Under the pieces are notes generated by a model. It worked only from the letters and a program-made list of their open reading frames with translations. It was not told where the DNA came from and did not search any database. From NCBI RefSeq assembly GCF_018350175.1, contig NC_058368.1, positions 7,564,001-7,628,000 on the forward strand: a stretch of 64,000 nucleotides of DNA, given 5' to 3'. How positions within the stretch are numbered: position 1 is the first letter of the stretch; the number at the start of each line of letters is the position of its first letter. The position numbers were made by a program, and so were the translations under genes. Source of the DNA: Felis catus. Taxonomy: Eukaryota. Positions 29,351 to 57,998 of this stretch are shown here, piece by piece.

Positions 29351-29549
29351 CCCTATGTACGCCTTGTTTGGACAGGAGTTCCACAATACGGGTACATCCC
29401 CCCCCCCATATGTATCCTAAGTTCTCAGTCTTTCTATATATTAGTATCATATCCGTATTACTGTAATGTTTTTATTTTTTAAAAAATCTTGTGCAAGAAG
29501 ACCTTTTAGAAAGCCGAGTAGCTCCTTTCACCCAAATTTGGTTTTCTAG

Positions 29550-30860
29550 AACAGCTCAACCGGTTGAAGAATCTCCTGCGCCCGTCTGAGTTGCAACAGG
29601 CTCGCGGCCACGGTGGAGAAGCCTCGCAGCGCCCCAGATGGGGAGCAGCCGCGGTGGGACCGGCGCTGGAGCTTGCGACCGTCCAGCGGGCTCCGAACGA
29701 GTCCCCTTCCGGGTCCGCTCGGGACGCGGGGGAGGAGCGCGGGCGCGGATCCCCGCTCTTCCCAGAGCGCGCGCGCCCCCTGGCGGCCTGAGCTCCGGGA
29801 GGGCCGAGGAATCCGGAGGGAAGCGGAGTCATCCCGGTCCCAGAGCCGGAGGCCCTGGCAGCTGCGAGGCCGCCCTATCAAAAACACACCCGGGCGTCCC
29901 AGCGCCAACCGCCGCCCCCCCCCCCCCGCCTTCTCGGCGGCACTGCCCGCTCGCGCCAAGTCCCCGTGTTCCTCCCCCCCCCCCCCGGGTTTGCTCGAGG
30001 GGTGAGTCTCGGCGTCGCAGGCGCGGTGGCCTCGTCGGCACCCGGTGGGGGGCGGGGGCCTCCTGGCCCGCCCCCTCCCCGACCTGGGAGCCTGGCGGGC
30101 GGCTCGCAGCCCCGGGCCTGCATTTCAGAGAGCAGCCGAGCTCCCCTCTTCGCCCCGGATGCCTGGCGCGCGGGCCCGCGGCGGGCGTCAGTGCTGGGGG
30201 GCCGGACCCGGCGAGGGGAAGAACTTGTAATCGCTTGCCGCGGGACAATGCCGACTTTTGAACCTCTAACCACTAAGCAAACAACCCTTGTGCTCTCGCG
30301 GCACTGTCCAAACAGGGTTTATTGACAGGCGTTTCACAGCAACGCATAGCAACCGCGGCGGCGGCGGCGGGGGGCGGGTGGGCGCGGCCGGGTGCGGGTC
30401 CGCGCCCCCCTCCCCGCGGCCCCACTCCGCAGGAGGCGCCGGGGGAGGGGGCTCGCGGCGATCGCCCCCCCCCCCCCCCCCCCCCCCCGGCTCAAAGGAC
30501 CCCGCAGCCCGAGAGGCGGGCCGGGCTCTCTCCCTGCGGCTCCGAGCCGGGCGCCCGCGGGCCGGGCCGCCAGCGCCCCTTTCTCAATCCCCGAGCGAGC
30601 GGAATGCCACCCGGAAGGGCCGCGGAACCCGGGAGATGCTGCAGGCGGTATTTAGGTCTCGCCGCTCAGCTCTTCCTCCGCAGCCCTCGGGGCACCTCCT
30701 CCCTCGGCGGAGGGCCGCGATGAGGACCCGAAGGTGCCTGTGGGAAGACCGAAATCGAGAGCGAGGCCCTTCTCCCCAGGCCCTGCTCGCTGGCTTCCAG
30801 GACCCAAAAACCTCAGGGACAGCAGCCCGGTCCCCAGCGGGTCGGCCAGATAACAAGCAA
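29550..30860. other. CpG island at the CDX2 3' end
   Basis: GC- and CpG-dense, with several poly-C runs. Confidence 0.8.
30318..30323 (-). promoter_or_regulatory. Candidate distal poly(A) signal of CDX2 (AATAAA)
   Basis: First canonical AATAAA I find on the minus strand after the CDX2 stop; followed by GT-rich sequence (gggttgtttgcttagtggtt). Confidence 0.55.
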
Positions 30861-32487
30861 CCACCACTGAAAGGCTCTCCTTATACTGGTTCTTGAATTC
30901 TTTGTGGGGTAGGTGGGGGGGGGGGGGGGGGGGGGGGGAGGATTTCGCGAGAAAGGACAAGGGGTGGAGACAGGGCTCACAGAAATGCCCAGTGATTCAC
31001 AGAAGACTATATTCATGGAAACACCCCGGGAGAGCAGAAAATAAAGCCTTTTTACTTAATGCTTATGTTTAGCTGGATTGTGGGGCATCCCTGGGGTGAA
31101 GGGACTCACTGATGCAGGGAATGTCGGTAACTGCGTCAGTGCAGATTTGAGGAGCTGGTGTGAGAGGGGACGCTTACCCCCACCCCCCCACCCCCTAATT
31201 CCTGGCCGCTGGGAAGCAGCTGACCATTCAGATGTGCATTTTGCCCAAAGGCACCCCCAGGAGAACCACACATTCCACAATCCAAGGCTGGGCTCAGGCT
31301 TGGGGGCAGGGAAGGTCTCAAAACCTGCTCCCTCAGGCTTCTGATGCTCTGGGGTAAAAATGAGGTTGTTCAGATAACCTTCTCCACTCCCTGTCCGAGT
31401 TTTCCCACACGAGGTTGCAAGTAGACAAGGTATTTCATTTCTTAAAAAAAAAAATAAAAATAATAATTCTGGACAAAATCTGAAGACGATAAATACAGAA
31501 TCTGAAATCTGGAAAACTCATTTATCTCTCTCTCTTTTTTTCTTTTTAGAAAAAATTCAACTGTGTTCAAATACCCCCCACTTCCCTTCACCATACCACT
31601 TCTCTCCCCGTGGATCCAGAAGGCTTTTGAAATGCTGGCTTGGATGTTACCCAGACCAACAACCCAAACAGCAGCAACGACAACAAAAACTCCCCTTCTT
31701 CATCAGCCCCAAGATTGTGAAAATGACAGGAAGTCCAGCTCGGCTCTGGCATTTATAGCACTGACATACATTTAGCCCAGAGAAGCTCTGGTGACAGGCT
31801 TTCTAAACAAGGCCCTGTCCTGGGCCCTCTTGTCAGGCCTGGAGTCCAATAACCACGCCTCTCACACCATCCACTGGGCGCACACATCAGTCAAGCCTTT
31901 CCTGGTCTGGGAAGGGAAGAGAAGAAAGACAAGACCTGGGGGTTCTGCAGTCTTTGGTAGGTCCAGGTTCCTATCTTAGCCGCCTGTGACTTCTGCAGTC
32001 ACAGAATCTTGCCTGCCCTTGAGCAGGAGGGCCCAGCGGGCCCTCGGATGGCAGTGAGTAGGTGGCAGCCATCTTGGCTCCGAGCATTGGTGTTCCCCTG
32101 AGTCTTCTCCCCCCTCAACCAGAGGTGCCTCCTGTAGATTTGGGAAGCCAAGAGCTGGGGAGGTGGGGGCCGGAAGCCCGGTCTGTTTAGCCAGTCCAGG
32201 CAATGCTTCCCTGGCGGGACGAGATGAAGCCTCAGTGATCATATCCCATCTTCTTGCTGGCAGAAAGTCAGACCAGAAAAAGTCAAAATCTGGGAGAATG
32301 TCTTCCTTGAGGCCTCCAACCCAACCCCCCCTTGTCCTTACTCCTGGCCCCCATTCTTCCTCTGAGAGCTAGGTCAGTTGGTGTACATTTGTGGAGGGGA
32401 GGGGAGGGGTCTCTCCTGAGGATTCTAGCAGAGTCTGTGCTCCTCGTGGCTCGGCCCTCGTGCTCGGCCGCTGCAGGCGCCCGTAGG

Positions 32488-32742
32488 TCATTGGGTGACA
32501 GTGGGGTTTAACACCCCCGCGGCTGGCCCCAGAACCCCAGGGACAGAGCCGGGCACCGAGCCTTGCAGGGAAGACACAGGACTCAGGGGCTCCGGGACGC
32601 TTCTCAGAGGGCCTGGCGGCGGCTGGGGGGGCTGTGGTGCCGGCGGTGGGGGCTGCGGCTGCTGCTGCTGCTGCTGCTGCTGCAACTTCTTCTTGTTGAT
32701 TTTCCTTTCCTTCGCTCTGCGGTTCTGAAACCAAATTTTAAC
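32488..32742 (-). CDS. CDX2: CDX2 coding exon 3 (homeodomain helix 3, polyQ/Pro tract, stop)
   Basis: [21 protein letters not shown]8PQPPPP...VLNPTVTQ*; acceptor gtccag|GTT; the three exons total 942 nt = 313 aa + stop. Confidence 0.98.
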
Positions 32743-33813: not shown

Positions 33814-33959
33814 CTGCCTCTCGGAGAGCCCCAGCGTGGCGGCCAGCTCGGCTTTCCTCCGGATGGTGATGTAACGACTGTAGTGAAACTCCTTCTCCAG
33901 CTCCAGCCTCTGGTGGTCCGTATACACCACTCGGTATTTGTCTTTCGTCCTGGTTTTCA
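33814..33959 (-). CDS. CDX2: CDX2 coding exon 2 (146 nt; homeodomain N-terminal part)
   Basis: [49 protein letters not shown]; acceptor ttcctccacag|TG, donor CAG|gtgcga; phases match exons 1 and 3. Confidence 0.98.
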
Positions 33960-37453: not shown

Positions 37454-37994
37454 CTTGGCTTCCGAGGGACTGCTGCGCGGGCTTCCGCATCCACTCGCAC
37501 AGGTTCCGCCGCTGGCCGCCCGGGGACAGCTGCTCGGCGGCGGCGGTGGCGGCCGGCCCGGGAGGCCCGGGATTGAGTGTCTGCAGCAACCCCGAGGCGC
37601 AGGAAGGCGCAGCGGCCGGGTGGTGCGGGTGGTGGTGCGGGTGATGGTGCGGGTGGTAGTCGGCCGGGCCGCTGTAGCCCATGGCGGCGGCCGGGGAGCC
37701 CCCGTTGAGGCCGTGCGCCACCGCGTTGGCGGCGGCCGCGGCGCCCCCCGGCGCGTAGCCGTTCCAGTCCTCTCGGAGCGGGGCCCCGTACGCCGCGGGC
37801 CAGGACGGCCCCGGGGACTGCGCAGTGTCCAAGTTCGCGGCCGCGGCGGCCGCGGCCGCCACATGGTAGCCGCCGTAGTCCGGGTACTGCGGGGGGCTGA
37901 CGAAGTTCTGCGGGGCCAGGTTGAGGCCGCCAGAGTGGCGCACGGAGCTGGGGTACATGCTCACGTCCTTGTCCAGGAGGTAGCTCACGTACAT
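37454..37994 (-). CDS. CDX2: CDX2 coding exon 1 (541 nt; N-terminal activation domain, His-rich tract, hexapeptide CEWMRK)
   Basis: Translation [45 protein letters not shown]...[17 protein letters not shown] is the CDX2 N-terminus; ATG in gccaccATG context; donor CAAG|gtaggc at 37454/37453. Confidence 0.98.
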
Positions 37995-38026
37995 GGTGGC
38001 GAGGGCCCGACGGCAAACCTCACCAT
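37985..38026 (-). other. 13-codon uORF ([13 protein letters not shown]) overlapping the CDX2 start codon out of frame
   Basis: ATG at 38026-38024 in context agcATGg; TGA at 37987-37985, downstream of the main ATG. Confidence 0.75.
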
Positions 38027-38279
38027 GCTGCCTGGGGGCCGACGCTGGAGGCTGCCGGGGGGCGCGAAGGGGAAGGGGCGAGGGGGCGCCGAGAGCGGCG
38101 GCTGGCTGCACCCCGGCCCGCGGTGCTCCGCTGGCTCCTCGCGGCGCTTCTGCCTCCGAGGCGGTCCCTCCCTCTGGCCTGCCTCCTCCCTCCTCCCTTT
38201 CTTCCTTCTTTCCTCCCACCTCCTCCCCACTGGGCTGCAGAGGCGGGGAAGACCCGCCACAGGCTGGAGTGCGGAGCCC

Positions 38280-38500
38280 CAGGCCGGCGGCCTTACGTGA
38301 TTAACGAGTGTTTACAAGACTCTATTAGTAATGACACAGACACCAATGGCTGGAGACGTCGAGGCGCAGCGCGCACCCCGCGCACAACCCCCCGAAACAC
38401 GATTTGCATTTTAAAAGATAAGGGGAGAGGGGAGCTCAAGAGAGGGCTGCGACCCGAGCACCGCGAAATATTCAAACCTTTATTGTTAAGAGCTTCCTCC
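38280..38500 (-). promoter_or_regulatory. CDX2 proximal promoter
   Basis: AT-richer block directly upstream of the GC-rich 5'UTR with TGTTTAC (38309-38315, FOX), CCAAT (38343-38347), octamer ATTTGCAT (38402-38409), AGATAA (38416-38421) and TTTATTG (38479-38485, CDX-type). Confidence 0.7.
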
Positions 38501-41500
38501 TTCCAACCTGGTGCACTTTAACCTCCAATCACAGGTTCAAAGAATGAAATCAAGAGACTTGCAAAAGAGGGGGGGGGGGGAGAGCTATCTTGGTGGGAAT
38601 CTGGGCTTGGAAACTAGTAGTGTTTCTGCATTTGCGGGGTGGGGGGGGGGTGCATCTAGAGGCTCGTTCTACACCAAAGAGGAAAGAAAAGGGAAGCCAT
38701 TGCTTTGATGACTACGTTTCTGACCCACCCGGGAGGTGAGGAGCCGAGCCCTTAGAGATGGGGCCGGTTCCTGCCCTCTCTGCGCTCCCGGCCAGAACGG
38801 TTGCGCGCCCCAAAACAACTGTGGCTGCTAATCAGCTATTTTCCTCTCCAAGGAAACCTCTTGCCTCTGGCACAAGATAAATGATGCCGCTAGCTTCAGG
38901 CTGCGTCTCCGAGTTCATCTCACGTTTGGGATTTAAGTTAAATTAAAGCAGTTCATATTTTAAAAAAGCATTTGCATCCAAAGACACAAAACAGTCAGAC
39001 CAAGGAGCCTGTGGCAGAAGTCAGACGGTGGAGGGCAGTTATGGGGGGGGGCGGGTAAAAGAGGGCTGCTAGAGTGCTGGCAAAGTTCTGGTTTCTTGAA
39101 CGGGGTGCTGGTGACACGGTAGGTTGTCTGCGAAAATTCAGCGAGCCTAGCCATACGTGTTTATTTTACTGAAGCGGTTAAAAATCCAGGTAAAGAGAGT
39201 CAAAATTGCTGCTAATATATACCTAGGGATTTGTATATTGTACATAACGCCTTTGTCTTAAAACCACTTTCTGCTTTCCAAGCTAGAACATTGTCCAAAG
39301 AAAATCGTTTCTCGTCTCTAGGAGATGGGCAGGGAACCCGGGCCGTTACTAATGATTGCTTCTGAAGAGCTCCTAGTGAAGAAAAGTTGAGAAAGGATCG
39401 ACTTTGAAGCACTGTGTCGGGGGCCCCAGGGGCTCAGTGGCAGCTGCGGGGACCAGTGCTGTGAGGCCTGGCTTGGGAACTGCCGGGACAGGAGCGCAAG
39501 GCGACCAGATCCGTCTTGCGCACGCGCCCGGCCCGGCTCCGTGTAGCCACTGCAGGGAGCAGCCCCGCGGTGGCCTTCCAAGCTTTCTCCCCGAGCCCAG
39601 ACAGTGCCACCAGACTAGGATTTGAGGATCGCAGAGGCCCGGTCCGGGGACTCGGCAAGCTGCCTGGGCGGCTTCGGGCGCTCCGGGACCAGCGGGACAC
39701 TAGCCGCCCATCTCCATAGCTGCACTTGTCGGTTCTCATTGTCACGCGCTCTTTGGCGGTTGTCACTTCTTCACCTTCTCATCTCTGGAGCTTTTTCCAG
39801 TGCCCTTTACCTGCCTCGATCCTCACATCTCCCTAAGTGGGGAACTGAGCTGGTGTTGTCAGCACCTCCGTTTTACAGACGACACCCACCAAAGCTGCAT
39901 AGCGGAGGGAGGCCAGGCCCAAGTTGGATGCGAACAAGCCCAGGGCTGAGGGATCCCTGCTTGCTGGTTCTTCTCCTCTGCGTTTCCTAAGGAGGTTGGT
40001 TACAATCAGCAGTCTGCGGGGCGGGGGTAGGTCAGATAGCTGAGCCCCCAAGAGGTGGAAGACGTGGGGGTGGGGGGGAGGTGGGCAGGCAAGTCGTCCA
40101 AGTGGACCTACTGAGCCTGGTCCGGACAGCTGAGTTCATGGGACCGCTCAAGAAATAAAACAGGGAAAAAAGGTCGCAAGCCCCATTGCAGAACCCAAAT
40201 CATTGAGTTGGGGGAGGGGGAGCGAAAGAGAGAGTCTGCAGTCCTGATGGGGTGGGAATGTGGGAGGTTAAGTGGTGGGCACTTCAGACTTTTGATCTAG
40301 CAAACATCTTCCTCCTCTTCCTGGAGACACAATTCCTCTTTCTGTCCCCCACAACCCCCTCCCAAGCCTCGAGCTCTGGAAGCCGAGGCCCAGGCTCAAG
40401 CCTGCGTCTTCGGAATGTGGGCATTCTTTGGAACAATCGCTTTATTGGGGACAGCCATTCCCTCCGCCCTGCAGTGGCCGCTTCCTGCGTTTTTATGGCC
40501 CGGCCGCCGGCCGCTGGCTAATTGTCCCTGTTTTCCAGCTGTGTCTCTGTGCTCTGCCCCGGAGAAAGGGCTCTGGCCTGCCCGCCCAGATGCTTTGGGA
40601 GCAGCCAGGGTCGCTCTGGCCCCAGGGGTCACGCCAGGCCCCAGAGCTGGCTGGACCCCAGGCAACCTGAGGCTCTCTTGGGGTGTGAGAGCTGGAGAAA
40701 GGAAATCGTGGTGAAAAACCAATTGGTTTTCTTAATGGAAAATGGGCCTGCAGGGCAGTAGCATGACCCTGCCCAAGGTCCTGGGGTCTGGGCTGTTTGA
40801 TGAGGAGAAAGGAGCCAACACTGATGTCCTTGGATAAGCTTCTCAGGGTGGAAGTGTCCCTTCACATCCGGCTGCACTCTCAACCAAGAGGCCCATCTGG
40901 GTCCCCAAAGGGCAGGGTGCCAGGAGCAGTCAGAAAGGGGTGGATGGTGGCTGATGAGAAGGAAGCTTGGGTGTCTTTTCATCTTGATGGCTTAGCCTTT
41001 CTGGTGGGTCTTCACCAGGTGCCTATCCTCTGGAGGCCTCCTCTGGATGGGACTCTACCAGCCTTTGGGTGCAGATGTGTGGCCCTGGGAGGGTGGGGGT
41101 GCCACCCGCAGGAGACCCTGGGGGAGAGCCTTCTCAGTCCTGGACCCAAGGTGCTTGGTGGCTTTCTTAGGACCTTTGGCCTGAGCTGAGAACCTCCTGG
41201 GATAGTTGGCCCCAACTTCTCTGGATCAAGGCTTTTTTCCAACTGGCTGCCCTACCAGAGAAGCCTTCAGCAAATGGCTCTGGATGAGGCAAACTTGTGG
41301 AAAGCTTGGGGCTGGGGTTGGGGTGGGGCTGAAGCTGTGACCCCGTGGAGCCTGAGCCAAAGCAGGCTTTTAAGGGCAGGAGAGGGTGGGAAGAAAGAGA
41401 CTCAGGTAAATAAAGCATCAGGAAGACCACAGGGCAGCCACAACGGTTATCAAAGGGACGTGGTCTCTTTGTTGCTAACGTTGTAAAGGCCATTCAACAT

Positions 41501-44500
41501 TCCTTGCAGAGGGTCAGGGGCTTCCAGAATTCCGGCTGGTGGCAAGGGCAGGGGCAGGGGGTGTGTGTTGGGGGTGTAGGGAGGCACAGGAAGGGGGCGG
41601 GCTGCTCCTCTGGGCAGATGAGACACTCCTTGAATCCACAGATCATTGACAGGACTCTCTCCCTGCTCAAAGGTCCCCAGTGTTTGCTCTGGCTCCGGGC
41701 GGCGGTGGGGGGGGTCCTTTCCCCATATTTGTGGCTCTTGAAAAGCGGGGAGCCTGTGGCCCTTGTAAGCCAGATAGGGCAGACCATCTCTCTCCACCTT
41801 AGCATGCACGTCTGCTTTCTGAGTCCCGTTGAGATCAAGGAAATTATTCAAACAGTGCAACTGCTCCTATCCTTCCTCTCTTCTGCACAGGAAACCCTCA
41901 CCCTGCATTGATCTGGCTTGTCAGGGTAATTAAGGAAGAGCGAAAATGAAGACAGTGTTGCAGGATAAAATTGTTCGGCTTGGCGATCTGTACTGCTGTG
42001 GAGAAATGAGACCATCTCTACCTCATTTGGCATTGAGGGAGCTCGTCAGCCACCACCCGCAATCAGACACCCGATCAGCAACTCCCTCGCACAAAGGAAG
42101 GGCTCAATAAGGAGTGGTTTGACCGCAACAACCCCACCCTGCCCGGCCGCGGCCCACTCAGCTAACATCTCTGGGAAGGAAATCGATGGCAGTGTCCTTT
42201 CGGCCCCATCAGGCCACAATGGGTCCCAACGTGTTCATTCTGAACAGCAGGGAGGGGCCGCAGCTGTCCACAGCTGCCCGGGCTTCATTCCCAAGAGCAG
42301 ATGTGTCCCTGCCCCCACTGGTGTCAAGAATGTTCTCCCCCCCGCCCCAAGCAAACCGAGTATCTGGTCTTCTGTACCTGAGGGAAGGCTCCCGAATTCG
42401 TAGGAGGTCACTAGTGGACTAGAGTTTTACCGCTCAGGGCACAGGGTGCAGGGGAGTGAGGAAATGCACTGCCTTATTCCTCCCATGGAGTAACCCCCAA
42501 GGTTTCTTATCCAAGGCAAGGAATATACATTTTTTTTGTCATGCTCTTCTATCCAAAAATACACTGTTAAAGGCAGGAGATTTAGGGAGGTGAGCCCTGA
42601 GAGAGGTGCCGAAGTCTGGTTTTGCTCATTGGGTAAATGTCACGCAAATAAATGGCAGTTGCCCATTTTCGTTCTTTCTTCTGGAATTAGAGTCTGTGGT
42701 CACTGTGTGGGGATTGGATGAACCACTCTAGCGCCTTGTGGGGGGCAAGCACGGAGAATGATTTAAAGTCCCTCGAGGGAGAGGGCCTTGGGGGGGTCTC
42801 ACCCCAGAGGAAACCCCGCGATGCTGAGGGAGAAATCAAGCTCTCAGGCCAGCAACAGCTAAACGTTATCACTTGGTTTTGACGTGGAAGGCCTTTGGTT
42901 ACCATTTGTCCGCTCACCAACGTCTGTGCCTAGAGGGACTTTTGCTTATCATATGAAAATATGTTCCGAGGAAACCTTGCACAGTAGGCTTTATGAGGCC
43001 GAGGGAAGGAGCTCAGATAAGGTTCAGTTCTCCTGGAGTCACTGGGCCCTTTGGGAAGCTACTCTCTCTGGAGGGGAGACAAAGGACTTACTGTCCATGT
43101 AGTACGTCCAGTTTATAAAGGAGAAACCTGAAGCTCAGAGAGGTTGAGCGACTCTCCCAAGGTCACACAGCTAGCTGTTCCAGTCACTGAAACTAAATGA
43201 GCTACTATAGGTGCATTTTGGGCAGCGCGTAGGACTCTGGACAGACGTTAATTATTACTAAGGCTTCTGGTGCCACCCTGGAAACCCAAAACCAACCAGC
43301 ATGATTCCCGGAATCCAAACTCCCCACACCCTACGCCAAATAGGGCCAGAACAATCAGGCTCTGCTGTTCTACCTTTCTGACTACCTTCCACATCCTACG
43401 TATATCTCTCTTTCACAGGCACCTGCTAACTGCCGTTTATTAGTTTATCGAATGACAAATTTTCCATAAATTCCTTCCCAGATTCTTCGCCAATTACCAC
43501 CTGCTCTTGTCCTCCGGTAAATACTTTCTGAAAAGAGCTCTTTATTTTTGAATGGGAACTGATATCCTAAGCCTGATCCCTGAAATTTAAAATGAGTAAA
43601 GAAATGTATGCAAATAAATTGTGCTGTCTGCCCCCCCCCCCACCTTCTTCCCATGAGAGTTGTCCGTGGACATCTTTCGGACACACAGACCAAAAAGCCT
43701 ACTTCTTTGGGTAAATACAAGGAAGGCCCCATTCCGTTTCCGGGTGACATACGTGAATACCAGGCTCGGACTGGGCTGGTGAATTCCTAGCAGGAAAGCT
43801 CTCAAGTCTTTTGGCCAAGAGTGATGGCCGGGTGGGCTGGCTTGGACGTTTTAAGGGAGAGGTGAGAATTGGCGAAGCAGTTCCCCAACCTGGGAAGGTA
43901 GCGTGGAGCGGTTGGGAGGGTTAGGAAGAGGGACATCAGCTGTTCGCCTTCCAGCCGTTTTTTAGTATTGCCATTGTGGGGTGTGTGTGTGTGCGCGCGC
44001 GTTAACAAATCAGTAAGTAAAGTATGAAATTAACCACCCTAGACTCTGCACCAGCCACTTCTGGACTCCCGGACGCTCGCGGGGGCGCGTTGGGCCACCC
44101 CGCTGTCCCGGCTGGTGCGCACGCCCAGGATCCAGACCGTGGCCCCCGGCCTCAGAAGTCCGGGTTTGTCTCCCGCATCCTGCGCACCGGGGCGCGGAAA
44201 TGAGAAACATCTCCGCCAGGCCGAAGCCAGCGAAGTCCAGGGCGCGATGCTGTGTGAGCCAAGAGGTGGCCACAGAAACCTCTGCTGCCAGACCATGGCA
44301 GCCACGGCTGACCCGCCCGGGCAAGGGCGGCCCCCGCCTCTTTGCTCCTACCGGAGAAAAAAGCAAGAGCTACCTGTGGCTTTGGCCAGGGCCCTTCCCA
44401 CCCGGGCGCTCGCGTCCCGCGTCCCGCGTCCTGCCGGCAAGACTACAAGCGCTCAGCAGCGTTGGGAAGAGGCATCGCTCGGCCAGCCCTTCTTCCCCGT

Positions 44501-45774
44501 CCCCCTCCCCCTCCCAGCTCCTTTGAAGGGGTGGATCCAGAGTCTTCCCCAGCCCGTACCCCCTCCTGCAGAAATAAACAATTTCTGGCAAGCTTTGAAA
44601 TGTAACTGTGTGATTGAGGACACCCAGGTCGTGCCCCAGAGGATCTCACCTACACTCGGTCTAAAAATACGGCTGCAAGGCCTCCCCCGCGGGAAGCCTA
44701 TCTTAGCTTGAGCACATTTACACGGACAGTCCAGACTCTGCAGCTGGGGCCCCTCTATTTAAGAGACTGACTCATCCTAGGGTTGGACAGGGGGGCTTGA
44801 ATACACTGGATTAGTCAGAGTCTCAGGCCCGGCCTGTGGCGCTTGTATCCTGGGGCAGAAAGCCCTCTGTCTGGCCAAAGATTCCTTGTGTGTGTCAGTA
44901 AAGCCCCCAAGTTACCTTGGCTAAAGTGAGGCGGGCGTCTAGCCCCAGGCCCCAGGGGCCCACTGTTGCCGTAGGGTCCTAGAGCGCAGGAACTGAGTCA
45001 TCAAGCTGCCTTTGCTGTGTGCCCCTGATGCTCCCGCTTCCAGAAAGGCGTCTGGCCCAGGCCCAGGCAAAGGAGGCCTTGGTCTGCAGGGATGCTGGTA
45101 GCCGCAACTCACTTCCCTGGCACCCCAACCTAGCCCGGCCACCAGCTTCCGGCCTCCGTTCGCCCTTACCACTAGCGGAAAACACCTGCAAGGTGGCAAA
45201 GGGATTGAAGTACCTGGGGCGGCCAGGGTGGCTTCTGTCTGTGGGACTCTAGCCTGACCATGCTTGCTTTTTACGAAAAGGTTTTCTTGTTGCTGCTGCT
45301 GCTGCTGCTGCCGCTTACCTGGACGGGGTGGGAGGTGGGGGGTGGGGGGGTCACTAATGGAGGTTCCAGTCTTCAAAGGGCCAAACTCTGCCTTCCTTTC
45401 TCACCCTATCCGCATGGAAGAGGAGGGGTACGGCTTGTTTCTCTCCTCTGCCAACGGAAACTTAGGTTCGCTGGGGTCGGGTAGACCTTCCAGTGTGTGG
45501 GGCTGAGAGAGAGGGAACACGATGAGCCCGTCCTGCACGAGTGGAATTTTGGCCCTCAGTGTAGACAGCTGTCCGGTCTGCGGGGGGGGGGGGGGGGCTC
45601 TGGAGCCCCAGGGTTCAGAAGCTCCCCGGAATAGCTTACTCTGGCCACAAAGATTTCCCTGGGCACCGATCTTTCTCCATCACCTGCTTTGTCAGCCCTC
45701 TGGGGGGAGGGTTTCTCACGTTCACCTCGGGCTAGAATGTCCAGCACTGCTCAGTCAGTGCTATTAAATTATTA

Positions 45775-45785
45775 TTTATTTTATT
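45775..45785 (-). promoter_or_regulatory. Candidate URAD poly(A) signal (overlapping AATAAA hexamers)
   Basis: TTTATT twice on the plus strand, about 770 nt past the URAD stop. Confidence 0.4.
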
Positions 45786-45849
45786 ATTAACTTTGTAATG
45801 ACCGACGGGTCTCCCGTGGCAGCCTGAGGGTCTGACCAGTCAGCTCTCA

Positions 45850-47480
45850 AGGGCCGAGCTCTGGGAGAGTCCGGGAGGCCGCCTGCCCCTGACTTTTGGG
45901 CCCATCCAGCCTGGAGACGCCCCCACTCCCAACCCTCTCTCAAGGGCGACCGTGCCAGCTACTCCGCCTGCCCCCACGGGGCGCCTTCCCAGCGTCGGCC
46001 CATCACGGGGCTCCCTCCTGCCCACCTTCCCCCACACGCGGCCTCCCCGGCACCAAGGCCCCGCACCAGTGTTTTGCCTTCCTGGCTCCAGCTTCCAGTA
46101 GGCGCCCCAGAGTGAGAAAACGCCTTCCGCTCGCCTGTAAACGTCGGGTGCGGCAAATGAGGTGGGAGAAGAAGAAAACAAACAGACACACCGCTGCGGA
46201 ATAAAAGATCCCTTTTTCAGCCCGCTTTTGCCTTGCGGCTCGGGCTTAGCAGGAGAGGATGGGGAGCCAACAAGAGCCGGACCATCGCTTTGGAATCCAC
46301 AAAGGCCGGTGGCGTCAAAAGGGCTGCAAAGGGAGTGGAGACTCGAAGCAGTGAGCTGGCTAAATCGGGGCGAAGCGCGACCCCCTACAGATATTTTGGC
46401 AAAGCGTGCGCGGGTGGGCGGCTGGGTGGGCGGACAAAGGGGCTCATTACTCGCCCGATGGCTCCGCCGCTCCCCTCCCTCCGTGCGCGTGTGGACGCCG
46501 CTCCCGGCCCGCGCCCGCCGCGGCCGGTCCCGACGTGCGCCCGGGGTCCCGGGCTACGGTCCGGCGAGGCCGGCGGCGCCGAGGAGGTCGGCGAGGCGCA
46601 GGCGGCCGATCTTCTTCACCTCGCCCAGGGCGGTGCGCAGCTCCTCGGCGGGCGGGCGCTGCAGCCGGCGCGCCAGCTCCCCCGGCACCGCCGCCCGGTC
46701 GCTGAGACGCGCGGCGAGCACGAAGGGGAAGCCGAAGCGCGCGCGGTACTGAGCGTTGAGCTCCGCCAGCCGGAGCCGCTCGGCCGCGTCCAGGCTCATC
46801 AGGCCCGCGCCCCTCTGCTCCCGCCGCGACTCCGCAGTGAGCGTGCCCTGCTGCAGCTCGCGGCCCGCCAGGTCCGGGTGGCAGCGCAGGATGCCCTCTT
46901 GGCCTGCGGGGAAGCACAGACACGCAGCGGGGACGCGTCAGCGCGCGGCGGAGACGGCGGAGAGGGCGCACGGGGCTGCCAGCCGGCCTCCCGCCCCGCC
47001 CGAAGGGGGGCTTGGGGGAGGGCGGAGAGGGGGGAGACGCAGGGTCTTCTGGAGGTGACGAAGGGCAACGAGGGGTGTCCCGGATTGCGGGGGCGCCCAC
47101 CGCCGCAGCCCCTCGAACACGTCCTGAACCTTGCGCCCCTCGGTGCCAGCTCCTTCGGCCTGGGCCCGGACCCAGGGGCGGGGCGGGAAGTGACAGGCTT
47201 GTCCTTTGAGACCTTGGGGCAAGAAGAGCGGAGGGGAGAGGCCTCCGAGGCTCGGAATTTACGACTTGCTCGGGAGGGAGCAGGGACGCGATAAGGAGCC
47301 CGAGCGTTTCGTATCTTTTCAAAGTCCTTTGCTCTCGAGGGGGCTTTGATGTCGGAGAGGGCCGGACGCGGGGGCCTGAAGACTTCCTGCAAAAGCCACC
47401 GAATGGGTTTCGTTCCGTTCCGAAGGAGAAGGGCGGGGAGGGCCCAACGGGGATAACATCCATGGGGCTCGGCAAATAAA
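45850..47480. other. CpG island over URAD exon 2
   Basis: GC- and CpG-dense. Confidence 0.85.
46554..46903 (-). CDS. URAD: URAD coding exon 2 (350 nt)
   Basis: Acceptor cttccccgcag|GC; encodes QEGILRCHPDLAG (His67), ESRREQ (Glu87), YRARFGFPFV, EVKKIGRLRL, ends LLGAAGLAGP*; total 525 nt = 174 aa + stop. Confidence 0.96.
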
Positions 47481-49819
47481 CGTCCAGGATTTTGTGATCC
47501 TAAGTGTGAGGTTGGGGCGTCTGGAATGAAGCATCCAGAGAAACTTAGAGATGATTAACTGCAAAGAAACTCATTTCCAGCCGGATTTCCACAGCCTTTT
47601 GAATGAAAGTGGCTCTCCTCCTTTTAGGAAAATAACGCCCCCTTCCCACCCCACCCCCTCCCCTCCACCCACCGCACCCCCCCCCCCAGCCCACCCGCCG
47701 TCTGAGGCTCATTCCCTTTCTCCAAATATAGATCCTAAAGACAGCGCAGAGAACAACTTGGGAGTTTTCTTGCAAGATAGCTTCTCATAATCTCCGAGGC
47801 TTAAAACTGGAACCCCCTGGTGTAATGCCTGAGCTTTTAAATCCTAATCCGGGGAGTTTCCGTGAGCCCTGACCAACCATTTTTGCTTAGCTCTCTCAAG
47901 CCAGGATGCAAATGCTCAAGGCTGGGCAAGATTTCCGATATGGTGAGCAACCAGCCATAATCTGTAGGAGGAGGGTAATGACACCTAACTTGCCGAGTCG
48001 TTATGAGGATTGGAGACAATTAATTCATCCCCCCACCCCAACGCAGCGCCTAATGCTAGCAAACATCCAAGAAACAGCCGTTGTTATTAGTCGTAGTAAA
48101 CATTGTAACTGGACTGTGGGGCCGAAGCATCTGACTCTGGCGCTGAGGTGAGTCAGGAGCTCTGTTGGAGAGGGAGATCATTTAAAACTCGCTTTAAATC
48201 CGGCATAAAACCTCCCCTTACTCAAACCTTACGGTTTCTGCCCAATTAAAGGATGGTTGGGATTGCACCATCCAACTCACAGACCAGGGTCCAGGTCGGG
48301 AGAACCGGACCATCTGCTTTGAAGAGAGGATTCCGTGGAGGCTCAGAACGGATTAGGGGACCTGCCCAAGGTCACTTGGCTAGTAGCTCAAATACCAGGC
48401 GACTTGGGGGGCATTGGCCGTCCCTACAAGGTTAAAGGGCGTTTTAAACGAAAGTCGTGTCACCTGTAATTCTATCTCTACGACACCACTATTTTAGGCC
48501 CCTTCTCATGGGTCCTGTCCCGGGGCACTGCAAATGCTAGGTGCTTCTTTTCCCGGTCCGGGTGGGGCGAAAATGAAGGTGTTAAATTCCCTGCCTGCAC
48601 TGATCCCCGCCCCAGGCCCTGGAGGCTGTGCCCAGCGACCATCCGCCACTCGGAATCCGAATCCCCTCTGCACCCACCCAGCCCTGGCCCCCAGCAAACC
48701 GCAGGCTGGGGAGGGGAAATAGAGTCCTGAGCGTCTCTACAGGTCCTGACCCAGAGAGCTCTCCCTGGTGCCCCCTCCTTGCATATTCAGGTTTTCAAAG
48801 CAGCCTTTAGGCGAGGGGGACCGTGACCCAGTCTTCTGACCGACCCCCGTCTTCACTTCCTTTCCCCCCTATTTCTTATTCTCTAGAGGCCCAGCTCAAG
48901 CTTGGGGGAAAGTAGTTATTGGCGGGGAGCGTCAGCGTGGGGCTAGCGTCCGTCCCCATACAGCCCCCGAGCGGACTCCCCTAGGGGACCGCGGAGCAGA
49001 GACTGGAGGCCGCGCGGCGGGCCGGTCCCACGAGCGCCACACCTGCCCCTTTCCTCCTCGCTCTTGCACCTCGCTTCTCACCCCCCTGGGTTGTCTCCCC
49101 TCTTGAAAACACCGTCTGGGGTTAATGTTTGCCTAGGACTGGACCTGTGTCTTACACTGTTTGTGGGGAAGGTAGGGGGAAGAGAAGAGAAGGGAGGCCC
49201 AGGGAAGGGCAGGGCAAAGAGAAGAAGAAAACACACGCGCGCACGCACACACGCACACACGCATGCACGCACACCTGCGACACATATACACAGCTGCAGA
49301 TTAGAGAGAAAAAAAAGGTGCAAGGGGGCCAGTAGAGGCTGGTAGCTCAGAAAAAACAAAAAAACAAAAAAAAAAAACACAAAAAAAAACAACGTGATCC
49401 GGTCCAGCCCAGGACTCCACCTTTTCTGCCCCCACCACTGACCCCTGGAGTACTATCCGGGATGACGCTGACCCAGCCGCACCGGGCTGCGCACTCGCCA
49501 GGTCAGTCGATTGTCCTGCGGTTGGCCGGACCTTTTCAATGCTGCCTGTTTTCTTCAGTCTTTCCTGAAATCCTACGGCCTGTGCCATTGGCATGGCACA
49601 CGCAGGGATGTAGGGGTACACGTGTCTTATTTGCTGTGACCACAAGTCATCAATCTTTGCATCTAGGAGAGTTCCTGGCACAAAGCGGACACTCTTTGTT
49701 TCAATAGGAGAGCAGAGCAGGCAATTGGCTTAGAACCCATTACAGGCCACCAGGGTCCCTACATCGGTACCAACTAGTGTGTTCTCCCTGCCGGTACAAT
49801 GGATCATCTATTCCTTCTG

Positions 49820-50289
49820 GTGTGTGTGTGTGTGTGTGTGTTGATGTTTATTTTTGAGAGAGAGAGAAGGCACATGCACAAGGGAGGGGCAGAGAGAGAG
49901 GAAGACAGAGGATCAGAACCACACTCTGTGCTGACAGCAGAGAGCCGGATGTGGGGCTGGAACTCAAGAAGATAATGACCTGAGCCAGAGTTGGAGGCTT
50001 CAGGTAGGTCGCTTAACCAACTGAGCCACCCGGGCGCCCCCCGCATCTGTTGTGTTCTTTTTTTTTTTTTTTAATTTTTTTTCCCAACGTTTATTTATTT
50101 TTGGGACAGAGAGAGACAGAGCATGAACGGGGGAGGGGCAGAGAGAGAGGGAGACACAGAATCGGAAACAGGCTCCAGGCTCTGAGCCATCAGCCCAGAG
50201 CCTGACGCGGGGCTCGAACTCACGGACCGCGAGATCGTGACCTGGCTGAAGTCGGACGCTGAACCGACTGCGCCCCCCAGGCGCCCCCC
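49820..50289 (-). mobile_element. Two SINEs (49820-50040 with TG tail; 50060-50289 young)
   Basis: TSD catctgttgtgttctt at 50044-50059 and 50290-50305. Confidence 0.92.
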
Positions 50290-51399
50290 CATCTGTTGTG
50301 TTCTTGAAGCTGGTCCTCTTTCCATATCAAGTCTATGATTTCAAACATCCATTTCTTCCCCCCTCACTCCCGGCACTGCCTTATCCTCAGCAACCACGAA
50401 TGCGCCTTAGAGTCACTCGTCCCACCAACAAAATTAAACTCTCCCTTGATTCCTCTAGATTCTCCCTATATCTCTGCTCCTCCTTACAGCAAACACCTCA
50501 AAGGGGTTCTCACCTCCTATTCCAGGTTCACTCTATCAAGCTTTCAGTCCCACCCGCCATCCGCCAACCAATCTGCGCTCATCAAGGTCACAGATGATGG
50601 CCATCTTGCCCAAACCCAGCGGCCTGTGCTCCTGTCTTCTTCCTCAGCCTCTTGAGAGAATGTCATATGGTTGTTCCTCTGTCCTTCTTAAAAGATTATC
50701 ATCACTTGCCTACTTTCGTCATTGGTTCCTGTTCTGCCAGATCACTAACACTGAAGTACCCCAGGACTCAGTACTTCTCTTCCCCTCTGTATTTGCACAA
50801 ATGCCCAGGTGTTCTCACCGGGTCTCATGGCTTTAAATGCCATCAGTTTGTGTGTGTGTGTGTTTTTTTTTATGACACCTGGATCCAAAAAGTCTCAGGT
50901 TCCTTTTCTAAGATGGCCTTCTCCTGGAGCTTAGACTGCTTTCTTCTCATCTTTTGGTTTTTGGGACTCCAATGTCACTTCCTAAGAAAGACCTATTTTA
51001 TTACATATTTTCTTCTAACACTTTTTTAGAATGTGAAATTATCTCATTTACTTATGTTAATCCAGTCTCTCTCTACTAGAATGTAAACTCGTTGAAGGTA
51101 GGCACTTGTCTGATCCACAATGCCTGGGACAATTCCTGGGGCACAGTGGGCGCTTGACCAACACATCACTTTTGGGAAGGAGTGCCATATATATCTTTTG
51201 ATTGAACACATTTGAACAGCCTCTTCTAAATACCTGATAGCCTGCATTTCAGGGAATTATTAGTATCTTTTTTATTCATTCAACAACTATGTTCTGAAAG
51301 AAGTATTAAATAATAAATGATGGCATTATTGCAATTCTGAAATGTCACAAGGAGATGCACTTTTTATCTTTGATTTTAACACAAATTAGTACTGAATTG

Positions 51400-51401
<2 letters not shown>

Positions 51402-51435
<34 letters not shown>
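51402..51435 (+). repeat. (TG)n microsatellite
   Basis: Direct reading. Confidence 0.95.
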
Positions 51436-51437
<2 letters not shown>

Positions 51438-51954
51438 CAACTGTCTTCCCTTTATTTTCTCCACGCCCCTTGGCTGGAAATCAGGAACTGATGGGCTTGA
51501 AAGGGTGCTTGGCCAATTAGTGCTGGAACTGAATATTAATCCTGGACTGCCACCTACTGACCAACAATCATCATAGTGCAACGGAGTGGATTGTCAACCT
51601 TGGTTTACTCTACAAACAAGATTTTGTTTTCTGCGAATTGTGGAGGATTTTCTTAGATCGTGTATAAAACAAATCCTTGACCAGGTAGATCACCCTATCC
51701 CGAACTTTCTTTTAAGGCCTCTTTTCGTTATGGGATTAAAAGACTCTATTACATTCCCAACTCTGCAGATTAAAGCTAGACTATGCAGTAAATCCCGTTT
51801 TATTTGCTTATTGAAATAACCCAACATAGGATCTGGGACATCAAGCCTTAATATGAATTGAATAAATTAGTGAATGAATAAAAGAACTCCCTAGAAACTC
51901 TTTTTAGCCTGTTCTGATTCTCTAAAAAATGCTTCAAAAGCTGCTGGGTCGACC

Positions 51955-52182
51955 ATCAAGGTTGGAATCCCGGTTCTGCCACTTTCTAGCTGTGTGTTCT
52001 TGATCAAGTTATTTATCCTTGCTGTTCTTCTGTTTTCTCATCTGTAAGATGGATATGATCACGATAATGCTTGTTTTATAAGATTACCATAAGGATTAAA
52101 TGAGTTAATAAATGGAAAGTGTTTACAAATGTGCCTGAAATACACCAAAAGTAAGGGTTAAATGCATTTTCGCTATTATTAT
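51955..52182 (-). mobile_element. MIR
   Basis: aatcccggttctgccactttctagctgtgtg...tctcatctgtaagatgg...aggattaaatgag core. Confidence 0.8.
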
Positions 52183-54255
52183 TTTCATCGCTCACGTTGC
52201 CTCTCCAACATCATGGAGGTGATTAGATACAAAGTAACCACCCTTATAGCTTTGAAGCCCTGCTCCCAGCTGCCTAAGAGAACGTGGACACTGGCATAGC
52301 ACTGAGAAGCAGGATCCACATAAGGAGGTCCCTCCAAAGGACAGTGTCTGATGCAGAAGGGAGAAAACACCCCAGTGACCCCAGCTCCCTCTGTCATTTT
52401 GTCCCATGGGCCTGTCACTAAAGTCGCTCCAGGTGAAATGTGTGGGGAAAGGGTACCAGGATCCATCACCTTTCAAAATCATCTTATGATCTCATCTTCT
52501 GAATTGTTTCATGCATTCGATATTAAGTCCCTATTCACTGAGCGATGTAGGATTCTGACACCGACCAGAATACGGAGCTCCCGCTGAGTTAGGAGAGGGA
52601 TCAAATACAAGCCTCAGGAGGGAGGGGGTGAATGCCAATCCCCATATCCCACTTTGCTCAGGACTGTGATTGGATTTGACCTTAACTAACCTTAACGAGA
52701 ACCTCTGCTCAAACTGATTGGAGTGACTGCTGATGAGAGAGAAGACAGAAATAGGGAAATTTTAATTTTATTATCTAAGTTCTTGGCACGGCAAGCCCTA
52801 AATAAATGTTGAATAACTGGATAAACCAGTGAATACTGGGTTTGAATTATCCACGCAATCCTTTCCCAGCCCTACCACCCCTTAGGTATTGAGACAGATG
52901 GTGGAATTTTTCTCCTTTATTTTTTTTTTAACATGCTAGAAAAAATGCCATTCATAAGGCATCACACCCTTTAAAAATTATTTCCCCTCTGGCCTAGAAG
53001 CCTTCCATTTGACCTGCCTTTTCCTGTCAGACATTTCGAACACGGGCTCTGGTAGCTTCTTACTGTTTCCAGCTTGTTCTGCAGGCTGTATGCTGACAAG
53101 GGGAGCCTCTCGGCTCATCAAGCTGGGACTGACCATCCTGTGAGTCACCGGTCACAAGGCTTTGGTGTCCTTCAGCCCCACGAATGCCCGAGCCCAGTGG
53201 CAGAGCTGAGCAAGGCCCCGAGAAAGGGGTGACTGTCAACGTTTCTGTCAGTTTCATTTTATAACACGATCCTCTCCTCTTGCCAGATGTGCCCCAAATC
53301 AATTAAAACGAGTTCTTTATTTGGGGGACGTTCGGGAACCACCCCGGATGTCAGACTCTGGACGGATGGGCAAGACTGTCCGTTGGCCTCATTACGGGGG
53401 AGAAGACGGTGGCGGTCCTCCTCTCCCCCACCCCCACCCCCACCCCCCAGGCCTCTGTGGGAGCCCCTCTGTGAAGGCAGCCCTTGCCCCTCGCCTCCCT
53501 TCAGGCTTTTCTGAAGATACCCGAACAGCCCCGGAAGCAGCCCTGACTCTAACCCTCGGTCTCTGAATCCCTGTGAGGCCCTGTGTCACTCTGAGTCACT
53601 TGCGGTAAGCCTAAACCTCCACCCTCCTCACCCTACACCCGCAAGGGTCTCCTTGTCTCTCTCTAGCCAGAGGAAATCAACAATTTCTCTCCCTTTCGCC
53701 GGAGGAATTCCTTCAGATTTTTGTCTTTTCCTCTTCGCTCCCTCAGGGAGTTGCTGATCTGAGTGAGTCTCCTTTCCTCGGTGGTCCAGTCCAAACTGGC
53801 CCTTTCTGGTAAAAATGTCAGCCATTTGCTCTTTCCCCTGGGCTCCTGAGATATTCTGATACCGTGCTGTCTCCTCTCTTGCATACAGGACATTCCCAGA
53901 GCCAACACACTTGGCTAAGAGAGGGTGGGCCCTCAGCCTGACCTTTGGCCTCTGTGGGGCTGCGAGGAGGCCCGAGGAGAACTGTGCCTGTTCCTCTTCC
54001 GTCGTGACCTCGTGGCTTTAATATTTAACAACCCCTTTACCCGAGCCCACGTACCTCGCCAATTCTACCTCCGGCCCGACACCTCGCAAGCGTCTGACCC
54101 TCATTGACCGAGTCTAAGGAGATCGAGCCTTACGATAAAAATACCAATCAATACGTCAGGGATAAGCAACTAGGCTAAAATATCTCAAACCATCCGGGTA
54201 AATACGCTTGATAGCCCTTCGCACAGACTCTCGGCGTCTAATGCCGAAGCCTTAC

Positions 54256-54430
54256 CTGACTGTGGAAGGGCGTCAATAAAGGCAAAAAAGTGCTTCTCTA
54301 AATCTTCCGAGTTGGAGAACGGGCGCTGGGACCACACAGCAGCCGCGATCAGAGGGCATCTCTCAACGACATTCCCGAACACATCCACAAATTCTCCAAA
54401 GTCCATGGAGTTGACCTTCTCCATGTCCAT
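54256..54430 (-). CDS. URAD: URAD (OHCU decarboxylase, PRHOXNB) coding exon 1 (175 nt)
   Basis: MDMEKVNSMDFGEFVDVFGNVVERCPLIAAAVWSQRPF...FIDALPQSG; donor TCAG|gtaagg. Confidence 0.96.
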
Positions 54431-54506
54431 TGCTCGCGTTCAGCTGGACGAAGCAGAACGTCAGCTCCCCTCTCGGCGACTGAGCGACGCTCGGCCCGCT
54501 CACCCG

Positions 54507-54515
54507 CTTATATTT
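54507..54515 (-). promoter_or_regulatory. TATA-like box of URAD (AAATATAAG)
   Basis: About 80 nt upstream of the URAD ATG. Confidence 0.5.
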
Positions 54516-54542
54516 GCCGAACACACAAGCTTTTTTCCTGGT

Positions 54543-54569
54543 TGTGTGTGTGTGTGTGTGTGTGTGTGT
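54543..54569 (+). repeat. (TG)n microsatellite in the URAD promoter
   Basis: Direct reading. Confidence 0.95.
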
Positions 54570-55323
54570 TTATGCAACACCCGCTTGGCATGTTTTGAAT
54601 GCTTCTGGGAGCAGTGGGTCCAGAGTACTCGGGTGATGGACAAACACAGGCTTCAGGCTCCAGTCCCGGGAGTGGAGGGCTCTATGGGAGGAATGTTTCC
54701 AGCCACTCTGCTCCCACAAAGCCAGGAGGGACCCGATTTCACTGTGGGCCTTCAGGCCAGAGAGACTCTCGGTGTCATGAACATTTTAACGCCAACGTCA
54801 TCCCGGGAAGCTCCCTCTGGTAACTCAGAGACTGGTCGCAAGTCAACCCGCTTGGAGTTTGATTTCCCCTCTGTTGCCGCTGTGGGGTCAGGTAGTGCGT
54901 TTTACGCGCTTTCCCTGTATTTCGGATACCTAAGACATCAGGTGCTTTATAAATGCTCTTGAAACGGGATGTGGTCTCAAAGCAAGAACTCTGCCCCATT
55001 CTCAACTGTCCCTCAAACACCATTACGTGCTGTCTTCTTCCTGAGAATATATGCTTATCTGAAATCACTTTGCTTCTTATATTTACTTATTTGCATATCA
55101 CCTCTCAGCTCTGACCAATGCCGTGAGCCTGGAGACCGCGTGTCTTGCGTGCTTCTGTGTCCCGGGTGCCTAGAACCGTGCCCACGGTAGGCGCACAATA
55201 AACGCCATGGGGTGAATTCGTTGACCCAATGACCACATGGATCGAATTTCTCACCCGGATATCCTTCATGGGTACTCAAAATGAAAACTACCGTGGAAGA
55301 TAAAGCCAAAGAAAAGGAGGGGA

Positions 55324-57998
55324 GGGGCTCCTGGGTGGCTCAGTCGGTTAAGCGTCCAACTTCGGCTCAGGTCACGATCTTACGGTTCCTGAGTTCGAGC
55401 CCCGCCTTGGGCTCTGTGCTGCCGGCTCGGAGCCTGGAGCCCGCTTGGGATTCTGTGTCTCCCTCTCCCTCTGCCCCTCCCCTGCTCCCGCTCTGTGTCT
55501 CTCTCTCTCTTTCAAAAATAAAATAAAACATTAAAAAAAAAAAAGAGTTGGATGCTCAAGCAACTGAGCCACCCAGGCGCCTCAAAACTTTGCTTTTCAA
55601 GGAAGTAAATCCAGCACCCGAAGTACCACCGTTGCTGGCTTGTCTTCACATGTGAAAGAGGAGCTACGAGATTAACACTTACGTATAACATACTTGTGTG
55701 TACGTGAAAGCACATTGAATCCTGTGGTGTATGAGTTTCAGGCAGTAGAACGCAGCGTGGAGAACACGGACCCAGGAGGGTTTTGATCCTGGTTCCGCCA
55801 TTACAATCAGACGTTTGTCAAGTTACGGAACCTTCTGTTTTCCAGCTTGTCTGTATAATGGGGACAATGACGTGTTCACCTGGTGGTAGCACGACGTAGC
55901 TGTTGGCTACTATTTTCTGGGTCGAATCTCTCCACTGGACCAACCACAGAGTTTTCTCCTCTTTCCTTCCCGCCCTTAGCGTCTGTTGCTCGTCCATGCA
56001 GGCTTTGCGGTGGGCCCAGTCAACAGGCCAATAGCCATTTCTTCTCCCTCCGCCACCCCCCCCCCCCACCAGCCTCGGTTCATTGTAGTGTGACCTGTGA
56101 AGCACCTGCAATGTTCAAATCAGAGTGTGGGGAAAGGGAGGAGGAGTCTGGCTGGATCCCGACCCTGGTCCGTCCAGGCTCCTTCGCCTCATTACCACCC
56201 GCATCCCCAGACGCTGGGAAAAGCAGGTAGAGCAGAAGTAGAGAAAGAAGGGCATTCTGGTTCCATCGCTCCTTGTCGCCCCCCCCCCTTTTATATGACC
56301 CCTTATCATTTCCTGCTCTTACCTCTGCACATCAAGGGTCTCCCCGCCCCCAAAGGAGCCCCTGTCTGGGGCTTGGAGCCTGGGGGTTCTCGGCTGCTCA
56401 CAGAACCACATCTCAATTTGCAAATGGAAACCCTTCCGCTCACAGCGATGCCAAGAGGCATGATGGGAAAGACCTATTGATATTACCACCATTCTGGCAC
56501 GGGGCTGGAAACCGAAGCTTTTATTTTGCTGTATCTATCGTATAATAATGGACCTCCCAAAAACCTACCGACGTAGGAACCCTCAAGACGCAAAAAGTTC
56601 AGGAATTAAACAGTCACGGACACGGAAACAATGTTGATGACAACAAAATACAAATTACCAGCGTGGAACCAGCAGCTCGTGCCACTGGGCTTAACTCAGC
56701 ACCTTGGGCTCCACTTCTGCTGACTCTCAACCAATCAAACCAACCAGAAACATGGAAGGCGGTGAGCAAGTAAGGCAACTTTCATCCGGGGAAAAAGCTG
56801 AGTTATTGAGTAGTTCAATATAAATAAGAGAATTGTGTGGTATACGAATTATGTATCAGTAAAGTTTTTTTTTTTTTTTTTTTGAGAGACAGCACAGTGA
56901 GGGAGAGGGGCAGAGAGAGAGAGAGAGAGCTAAACAGGCTTCACACTCAGCATGGAGCCCAACACGGAGCTGGAACCCCCAACCCTGGGATCATGACTTG
57001 AGCCAAAATCAAGAGGCGACGCTCAACCAACTGAGTCATCCAGAACCTCCTCGATAAAGCTTTTTTAAAAAAGTTATAGAGGTGTGCCTGGGTGGCCCAG
57101 TCAGTTAAGCGTCCAGCTCTTGGTTTCGGCTCAGGGCATGATCTCAGGATATGTGAGCCCAAGCCCTTGGGTCGGCCTCTGGGCTGATGACACAGAGCCT
57201 GCTCAGGATGTTCTCTCTCCCTCTCTCTCTGCCCTTCTGCTGGAGCGCTCTCTCTCTCTCTCAAAATAAATAAATAACCTTTAAAAATTAAATAGATAAA
57301 AAATAAAGAGTTAAATTCTATAAAGATGTAGCCTCATAAGTTAACAGCACCAGATAGCCTTCTTGCCTTCCAGTTGTTGAATGTATCATATTTGACTTTA
57401 GTATAGTTTTTCTCTTAAGAGACTTTTACCAGAACACGGAAAAAGTTCTTACACGGGCATACATACATTTTTGTTTCATTTTTGTAGCTGAAACGTTCAC
57501 ACGTCAGCTCCCTCCCACCAGCCGCCCTTAACTTTTCGTGAGTGGAGCTGACGCGAAGTGTTTTGTCAAGAAGATACCAGAAAGACAGTTTGCTTTTCTT
57601 TCACAGACGTTTTTAATTTGAGGCACATTGGGAGTCAGAACTCATCTCATCTTGCTGTTCCCAGACGGCTTTCATAAGCTGAGGACTGAGCCAAAGCAAC
57701 AGGCCCTGGCAGGAGCCCAGACCCCCGGTGTGGCTGTGAGATGGGTGAGTACTTAGTACCTGCTTTGGGTCTAAGGAAGTGACTTAACCTGCTTTCTTCT
57801 TTTTTAAAAAAATTTTCAAATGTTTATTTGCATTTGGGGGGCGGGGAGGGGCAGAGAGCGAGGGAGACAGAGGAACTGATCGGGCTCTGCGCTGACAGCC
57901 GAGACCCTGACACGGGGCTGGAACCCACGAACCGTGAGATCCTGACCTGAGCTGAAGTCAGATGCTTGACCGACTGAGCCCCTCCACTGGGCGCCCCA
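55324..57998. mobile_element. SINEs at 55324-55545 (plus), 55543-55583 (minus head fragment), 56865-57050 (minus), 57081-57290 (plus), 57800-57998 (minus)
   Basis: Recognisable heads and tails; unique sequence lies between them. Confidence 0.85.

Follow-up and report, generated by a model that had tools for sequence, protein, structure and literature searches.

An intestinal enhancer of mouse Cdx2 is reportedly contained in a 250-bp element, described by Benahmed and colleagues in 2008, on which GATA6, TCF4 and β-catenin act in synergy; a 2013 study by Saandi is cited together with that work for the −8.5-kb enhancer (PMC8763054). In the literature, which is cited here and below for individual passages unless stated otherwise, mouse Cdx2 is described as partly controlled by an upstream −8.5-kb enhancer to which HNF4A and further factors of the intestine bind (PMC8763054), and the Benahmed work is credited with tying HNF4 to Cdx2 transcription in mouse (PMC2761415). 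A preliminary description of the DNA studied here had invoked a mouse element responding to HNF4A, GATA6 and TCF; the HNF4A part of that claim is in print (PMC8763054), and the GATA6 and TCF part reportedly goes back to the 2008 work.

Several other cis-elements of Cdx2 have been described. The +7-kb 3′ shadow enhancer (Watts 2011, PMC3174211; Singh 2022, PMC8763054) resembles the upstream element in that it enhances Cdx2 in endoderm and has sites of FoxA and HNF4 type, but it lies downstream of the gene, is conserved to birds, is repressed by Rfx and is dispensable for normal intestinal CDX2. Mice without this 3′ enhancer retain intestinal CDX2 (PMC8763054), which argues that other enhancers carry normal expression. 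The intron-1 P1/P2, 5′ and trophectoderm (TEE) elements (PMC12979250, PMC4891713) belong to the same gene, and P1/P2 contain TCF/LEF sites; they differ in position and in being active in caudal epiblast or trophectoderm. For an element designated “Iee”, PMC12979250 cites the papers on the 3′ enhancer as well as those on the −8.5-kb one; deletion of Iee had no effect on Cdx2 in the caudal epiblast.

The window, by which we mean the whole 64-kb stretch of DNA that was analyzed, is a mammalian ParaHox locus. Its repeats resemble carnivore SINEs. CDX2, the presumed target gene, lies on the minus strand, with the coding part of exon 1 at 37455–37994 (ATG at 37994) and further coding exons at about 33814–33957 and 32491–32742; the first two of these coding exons match Pfam Caudal_act and Homeodomain. 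URAD is upstream of CDX2, also on the minus strand. The coding parts of its exon 1 (54256–54430) and exon 2 (46554–46903) both match Pfam OHCU_decarbox and are separated by a phase 1, GT-AG intron of 7352 bp (46904–54255). The spliced reading frame is intact and encodes an OHCU decarboxylase of 174 amino acids. A CpG island covers exon 2 (about 46001–47500; GC at least 0.56 and CpG observed/expected at least 0.71 in 200-bp windows), and more CpG-rich islands lie 3′ of CDX2 at 1001–3000, 24001–26000 and 29001–31000. Candidate URAD polyadenylation signals at 45775 and 45780 (minus strand) overlap FOXA-, HNF1- and TCF-like words in the region 45768–45797, where the HNF1 match reaches 10 of 12 positions at 45779. 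Neither PDX1 nor FLT3 peptide words were found in the window, and a scan of 38000–56000 for structured non-coding RNAs gave no Rfam match at gathering score.

A cluster of short motifs, with its core at 47258–47351, is found close to where the URAD intron ends on its 3′ side, just where the exon-2 CpG island has its distal edge. The preliminary description had listed seven motif words and placed them inside this intron, about 9 kb upstream of CDX2. All seven occur exactly where it put them, and the gene layout confirms the placement: the motifs are 355–656 bp from URAD exon 2 and 9.26–9.57 kb from the CDX2 ATG, and the cluster lies ~9.0–9.3 kb upstream of the CDX2 start, or 8.9–9.05 kb with the start estimated at 38,300–38,350. 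Position and the types of motif present make it likely that the cluster is orthologous to the intestinal enhancer at −8.5 kb of mouse Cdx2, a candidate intestinal CDX2 enhancer in the 3′-terminal part of URAD's intron. If orthology holds, the element is probably one already known from mouse.

The sites of the cluster differ considerably in quality; their labels and consensus words are generic rather than drawn from a matrix library. The first is TTTACGAC (47258–47265, plus strand), a CpG-containing word of CDX or posterior-HOX type. It is followed by a GATA-like word, (C)GATAAG (47290–47295, plus strand), that does not fit strict WGATAR. The TCF/LEF-type word TTCAAAG (47318–47324) overlaps the HNF4-like word CAAAGTCC (47320–47327). 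The two share a CAAAG core and count as one site, a composite TCF/HNF4-like site (47318–47331) built as a CAAAG-TC-CTTTG inverted repeat; compared with a DR1, the HNF4-like site agrees at 9 of 13 positions whichever way it is read. No single site is stronger than CTTTGATG (47344–47351, plus strand), a high-consensus TCF/LEF site and one of just two CTTTGAT[GC] words in 64 kb. The other such word is at 38703–38710, ~0.4 kb above the CDX2 promoter.

Additional words flank this core. An ETS-type word, CAGGAAGT (47382–47388, minus strand), was absent from the earlier list. Another weak GATA word, (G)GATAAC (47452–47456, plus strand), likewise does not fit strict WGATAR, and the FOX-like word GCAAATAAAC coincides with a FOXA-type TATTTGC within GTTTATTTGC (47472–47481, minus strand). 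An HNF1 half-site, GTTAATCAT at 47559–47551, belongs to a weak match that agrees with 8 of 12 palindrome positions (47547–47559, minus strand). On the plus strand 219 places match as well or better, and we dismissed this half-site as meaningful alone. On the other side of the core, a GC box of SP/KLF type and an ETS-like GGAAGTG word occupy the edge of the CpG island (47175–47192, plus strand). The likeness to the mouse −8.5-kb enhancer, drawn by position and motif type, lies in the HNF4-, GATA- and TCF-type words, which here fall within ~60 bp; we know of no description of CDX, FOXA, ETS or HNF1 words as parts of the mouse element.

The position of the cluster was compared with that of the mouse enhancer through two landmarks. 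Mouse primers from the supplement of PMC3174211 match the CDX2 proximal promoter (38289–38425, minus strand) at 22/22 and 18/22 letters and the orthologue of the +7-kb 3′ shadow enhancer (30245–30315) at 20/20 and 17/20 letters. Agreement of all four primers, at 17–22 of 20–22 letters, indicates that the locus is colinear. The mouse 3′ enhancer is 7508 bp from the Cdx2 start (PMC3174211); here the corresponding distance is 7970–8070 bp from a start estimated at 38,250–38,350, which gives a scale of 1.06–1.075. Rescaled in this way, −8.5 kb in mouse corresponds to 47,273–47,486, on the cluster, with the qualification that the scale was derived on the opposite side of CDX2, that the start is estimated and that the two sides may scale unequally. 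Unscaled, it corresponds to 46,750–46,850, in URAD exon 2 and ~0.45 kb off the cluster. The cluster therefore lies no more than ~0.5 kb from the mouse-predicted position with or without rescaling, and it occupies the syntenic position, 8–9 kb upstream of the CDX2 start. Gene and side are the same as for the mouse enhancer, and the distance agrees after calibration. At the 3′ landmark itself, DR1-, FOXA- and RFX-like words can be seen by eye in 30245–30355.

A grouping of short, partly non-canonical words at a CpG-island edge might also arise by chance, in which case the true orthologue would either be a neighboring segment, such as one within the exon-2 island, or would have turned over in this lineage. 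We regard this as rather unlikely. With lenient words, the window beginning at 47258 is the sole 100-bp window in 64 kb that contains CDX, GATA, HNF4 and TCF words, and only one 320-bp window adds FOXA and an HNF1 half-site to these four classes. When overlapping sites were allowed, the four-class cluster was found in 0 of 5000 local shuffles, in 4/150 block shuffles of the whole window and in 2/500 shuffles of the upstream 16 kb; when sites were required not to overlap, it was found with 2/1000 letter-permuted decoy motif sets and in 20/3000 circular shifts. The rarity under three of these nulls (block shuffles, decoy sets and circular shifts) speaks against chance, as does the closeness to the mouse-predicted position. 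These figures should be read with the motif classes in mind, which were chosen, with lenient consensus definitions, after the sites had been seen.

The four-class rarity holds under the lenient definitions only. Requiring strict WGATAR, CAAAGKYCA or TTTATDRC each reduces the cluster to three classes, and a three-class cluster appears somewhere in 39–55% of 1500 shifts (P 0.39–0.55); with HGATAA as the GATA word, four classes are retained. In favor of chance, moreover, the HNF1 and HNF4 words fall short of consensus, as does each of the two GATA words, and the motif classes were picked post hoc. The trio expected from work on the mouse enhancer, HNF4, GATA and TCF/LEF within 250 bp, is present here with lenient words; its GATA and HNF4 members fail stricter ones, and its TCF member is high-consensus. 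Within 100 bp the trio is unique in the window, yet it occurs somewhere in 756/3000 shifts, and within 250 bp it occurs at five places in the window, which adds to the case for chance, and in 2523/3000 shifts. In a 1.5-kb zone around the expected position, drawn with knowledge of the cluster, the trio appeared in 124/3000 shifts. The same lenient scan detected no HNF4 or TCF words at the validated CDX2 3′ enhancer, which marks it as a poor classifier. Because significance is lost with strict words and the trio is common in shifts, the cluster is suggestive, and position is needed to persuade. The claim of orthology made in the preliminary description is thus borne out in part: the position fits the mouse landmarks, and upstream of CDX2 the trio within 250 bp is found just twice, here and at −3.1 kb, so that this cluster is the sole such grouping beyond −3.2 kb.

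Two published observations count against orthology with the mouse enhancer. In stomach organoids overexpressing HNF4A, binding was reported at the 3′ element and none upstream in the section concerned (PMC8763054), and CDX2 motifs were reported to be missing from the enhancers specific to duodenum that had been assigned to human CDX2 (PMC7826262). The passages available from three papers on CDX2, URAD or enhancers (PMC10703676, PMC9203705, PMC12542110) contain no description of this element; two of them (PMC9203705, PMC12542110) deal with a distant PAN3 enhancer and read-through RNAs. We found no mention in print of the mouse −8.5-kb enhancer being located in the URAD intron, in a literature seen partly as excerpts and including few subscription papers. 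Supplements of PMC5574553 (10 files), PMC11754732 and PMC8763054 (3 files, file 1 excluded), in the portions available, yielded neither “Urad” nor mouse peak coordinates, the latter sought with coordinate prefixes that may be wrong. Seven mouse guides from Table S2 of PMC12979250 matched the window at best in 12–15 of 17–19 letters, none convincingly and none in the cluster.

Two leads from sequence searches were rejected. Apparent cross-species conservation in three public runs of other organisms (7–12% of words) proved an artefact, as the reads matched the poly-C tract at ~47636–47696 only; the comparison covered 4 of 24 runs. This low-complexity tract, at 47638–47696, gives rise to spurious cross-species read matches. 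A motif-grammar scan of metagenome contigs returned two matches that we attribute to chance; no alignment to the region of the cluster exists for either, and a bacterial operon accounts for one of them. The match L002:268–2043 comprises unrelated bacterial genes that resemble, by eye, the hydrogenase-maturation genes hypB and hypE. A gut RNA run produced contigs over 47694–48950 and none over the cluster, a gap that proves nothing in a library that may contain DNA.

With the sites and the order in which they stand, the arrangement of the genes and the distance between element and gene established above, a model for the candidate CDX2 enhancer can be proposed. TCF7L2 and β-catenin would bind CTTTGATG in gut endoderm and epithelium, and HNF4, or a second TCF, would occupy the composite CAAAG site. 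GATA4 or GATA6 may act at the weaker GATA word, and FOXA and ETS factors may help to open the edge of the CpG island. The element would then contact the CDX2 promoter ~9 kb away and keep intestinal CDX2 on. URAD, whose promoter is ~7 kb away on the other side, probably shares this input. CDX2 itself could act at TTTACGAC to provide positive feedback, of a developmental kind, at the island edge. Cdx2 is described as preferring a CpG-containing motif when methylated, in development, in passages of PMC11754732 that do not give the letters of that motif. An extended version of the model, in which a gut enhancer shared by CDX2 and URAD carries a methylation-sensitive CDX latch, so that through the CDX site with its CpG, placed where the island ends, CDX2 would fix its own expression in the intestine during mid-gestation, is highly speculative and in our view improbable.

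The same sites could instead belong to a real endodermal element that serves mainly URAD and hardly affects CDX2, either by driving the uricolysis enzyme in liver or gut or as a CpG-island promoter inside the gene. HNF4, HNF1, FOXA and GATA are liver factors as well, URAD is intact here, and the GC-box and ETS words at 47175–47192 are promoter-like; all three points favor such an element. So does the comparatively high level of human URAD transcripts in gastrointestinal tissue (PMC13751858). On the other hand, control of Cdx2 is the role ascribed to the upstream element in mouse (PMC8763054), and FoxA2 ChIP-chip in adult mouse liver, with 30 kb upstream tiled per gene, lists 11 peaks on chr5 and none near Cdx2 −8.5 kb in the portion cited (PMC3174211), a weak argument from one factor in one tissue. 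We consider an element directed mainly at URAD distinctly unlikely.

The gut expression of URAD bears as well on the role of the host gene in the favored reading, that of a CDX2 enhancer. The preliminary description had cast URAD as a bystander that carries an enhancer for its neighbor, and this is too strong. Human URAD has no detectable activity, yet its levels are comparatively higher in gut transcriptomes (PMC13751858), which suggests that the element may be shared rather than ignored by its host. Shared use of the enhancer may fit this expression better than an indifferent host does. The words “Cdx” and “ParaHox” are absent from the main text of this review of URAD (PMC13751858).

The concept of a genomic regulatory block describes a developmental gene whose enhancers lie in a bystander gene. 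This locus resembles such a block in that a developmental transcription-factor gene adjoins an unrelated enzyme gene with a candidate enhancer in its intron and an old linkage between the two; it differs in that URAD seems to share gut expression. The age of the linkage between host and target comes from papers only. PRHOXNB/URAD flanks the ParaHox cluster in coelacanth (PMC4471637), and the linkage has been proposed for the chordate ancestor and is absent in Ptychodera (PMC3698058). The preliminary description had suggested that the enhancer helps to explain this persistent linkage. An enhancer known from mouse alone may as easily be a result of the linkage as its cause.

If the cluster is indeed the orthologue, a published mouse enhancer has merely been located in another mammal, within the URAD intron. 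The practical gain would be that deletion of the upstream enhancer in intestine could be aimed at individual sites; the literature searched, which included few subscription papers, held no report of such an intestinal deletion. The element also offers a regulatory reading of why human URAD, though inactive, is expressed in gut, and of a variant in that gene linked to disease. This variant, rs9581957, has been assigned to URAD or CDX2 and shows association with peptic ulcer (PMC10703676, PMC7895976) and with pancreatic cancer (PMC13751858). Were the shared enhancer with a CDX latch real, it would explain gut transcription of the catalytically dead human URAD, and it would suggest that the URAD-intron GWAS signal rs9581957 reflects regulation in cis of CDX2 or PDX1 rather than the linked URAD missense variant.

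Other motif groupings were seen closer to CDX2. A guide for the mouse 5′ element matches at 40404 with 15 of 19 letters, which alone is not significant. The surrounding segment, 40250–40500 (~2 kb upstream of CDX2), has an RBPJ-like word (GTGGGAA) next to a TEAD-like one (GGAATG), as well as a CDX word, TTTATGGC. Some 3.1 kb upstream of CDX2 is a second endoderm-type cluster (41171–41732), in which five of the six motif classes occur in 320 bp; it contains overlapping GATA and TCF words (41447–41455), a TCF word at 41467, a CDX-like word at 41480, a FOXA word and two HNF4-like words.
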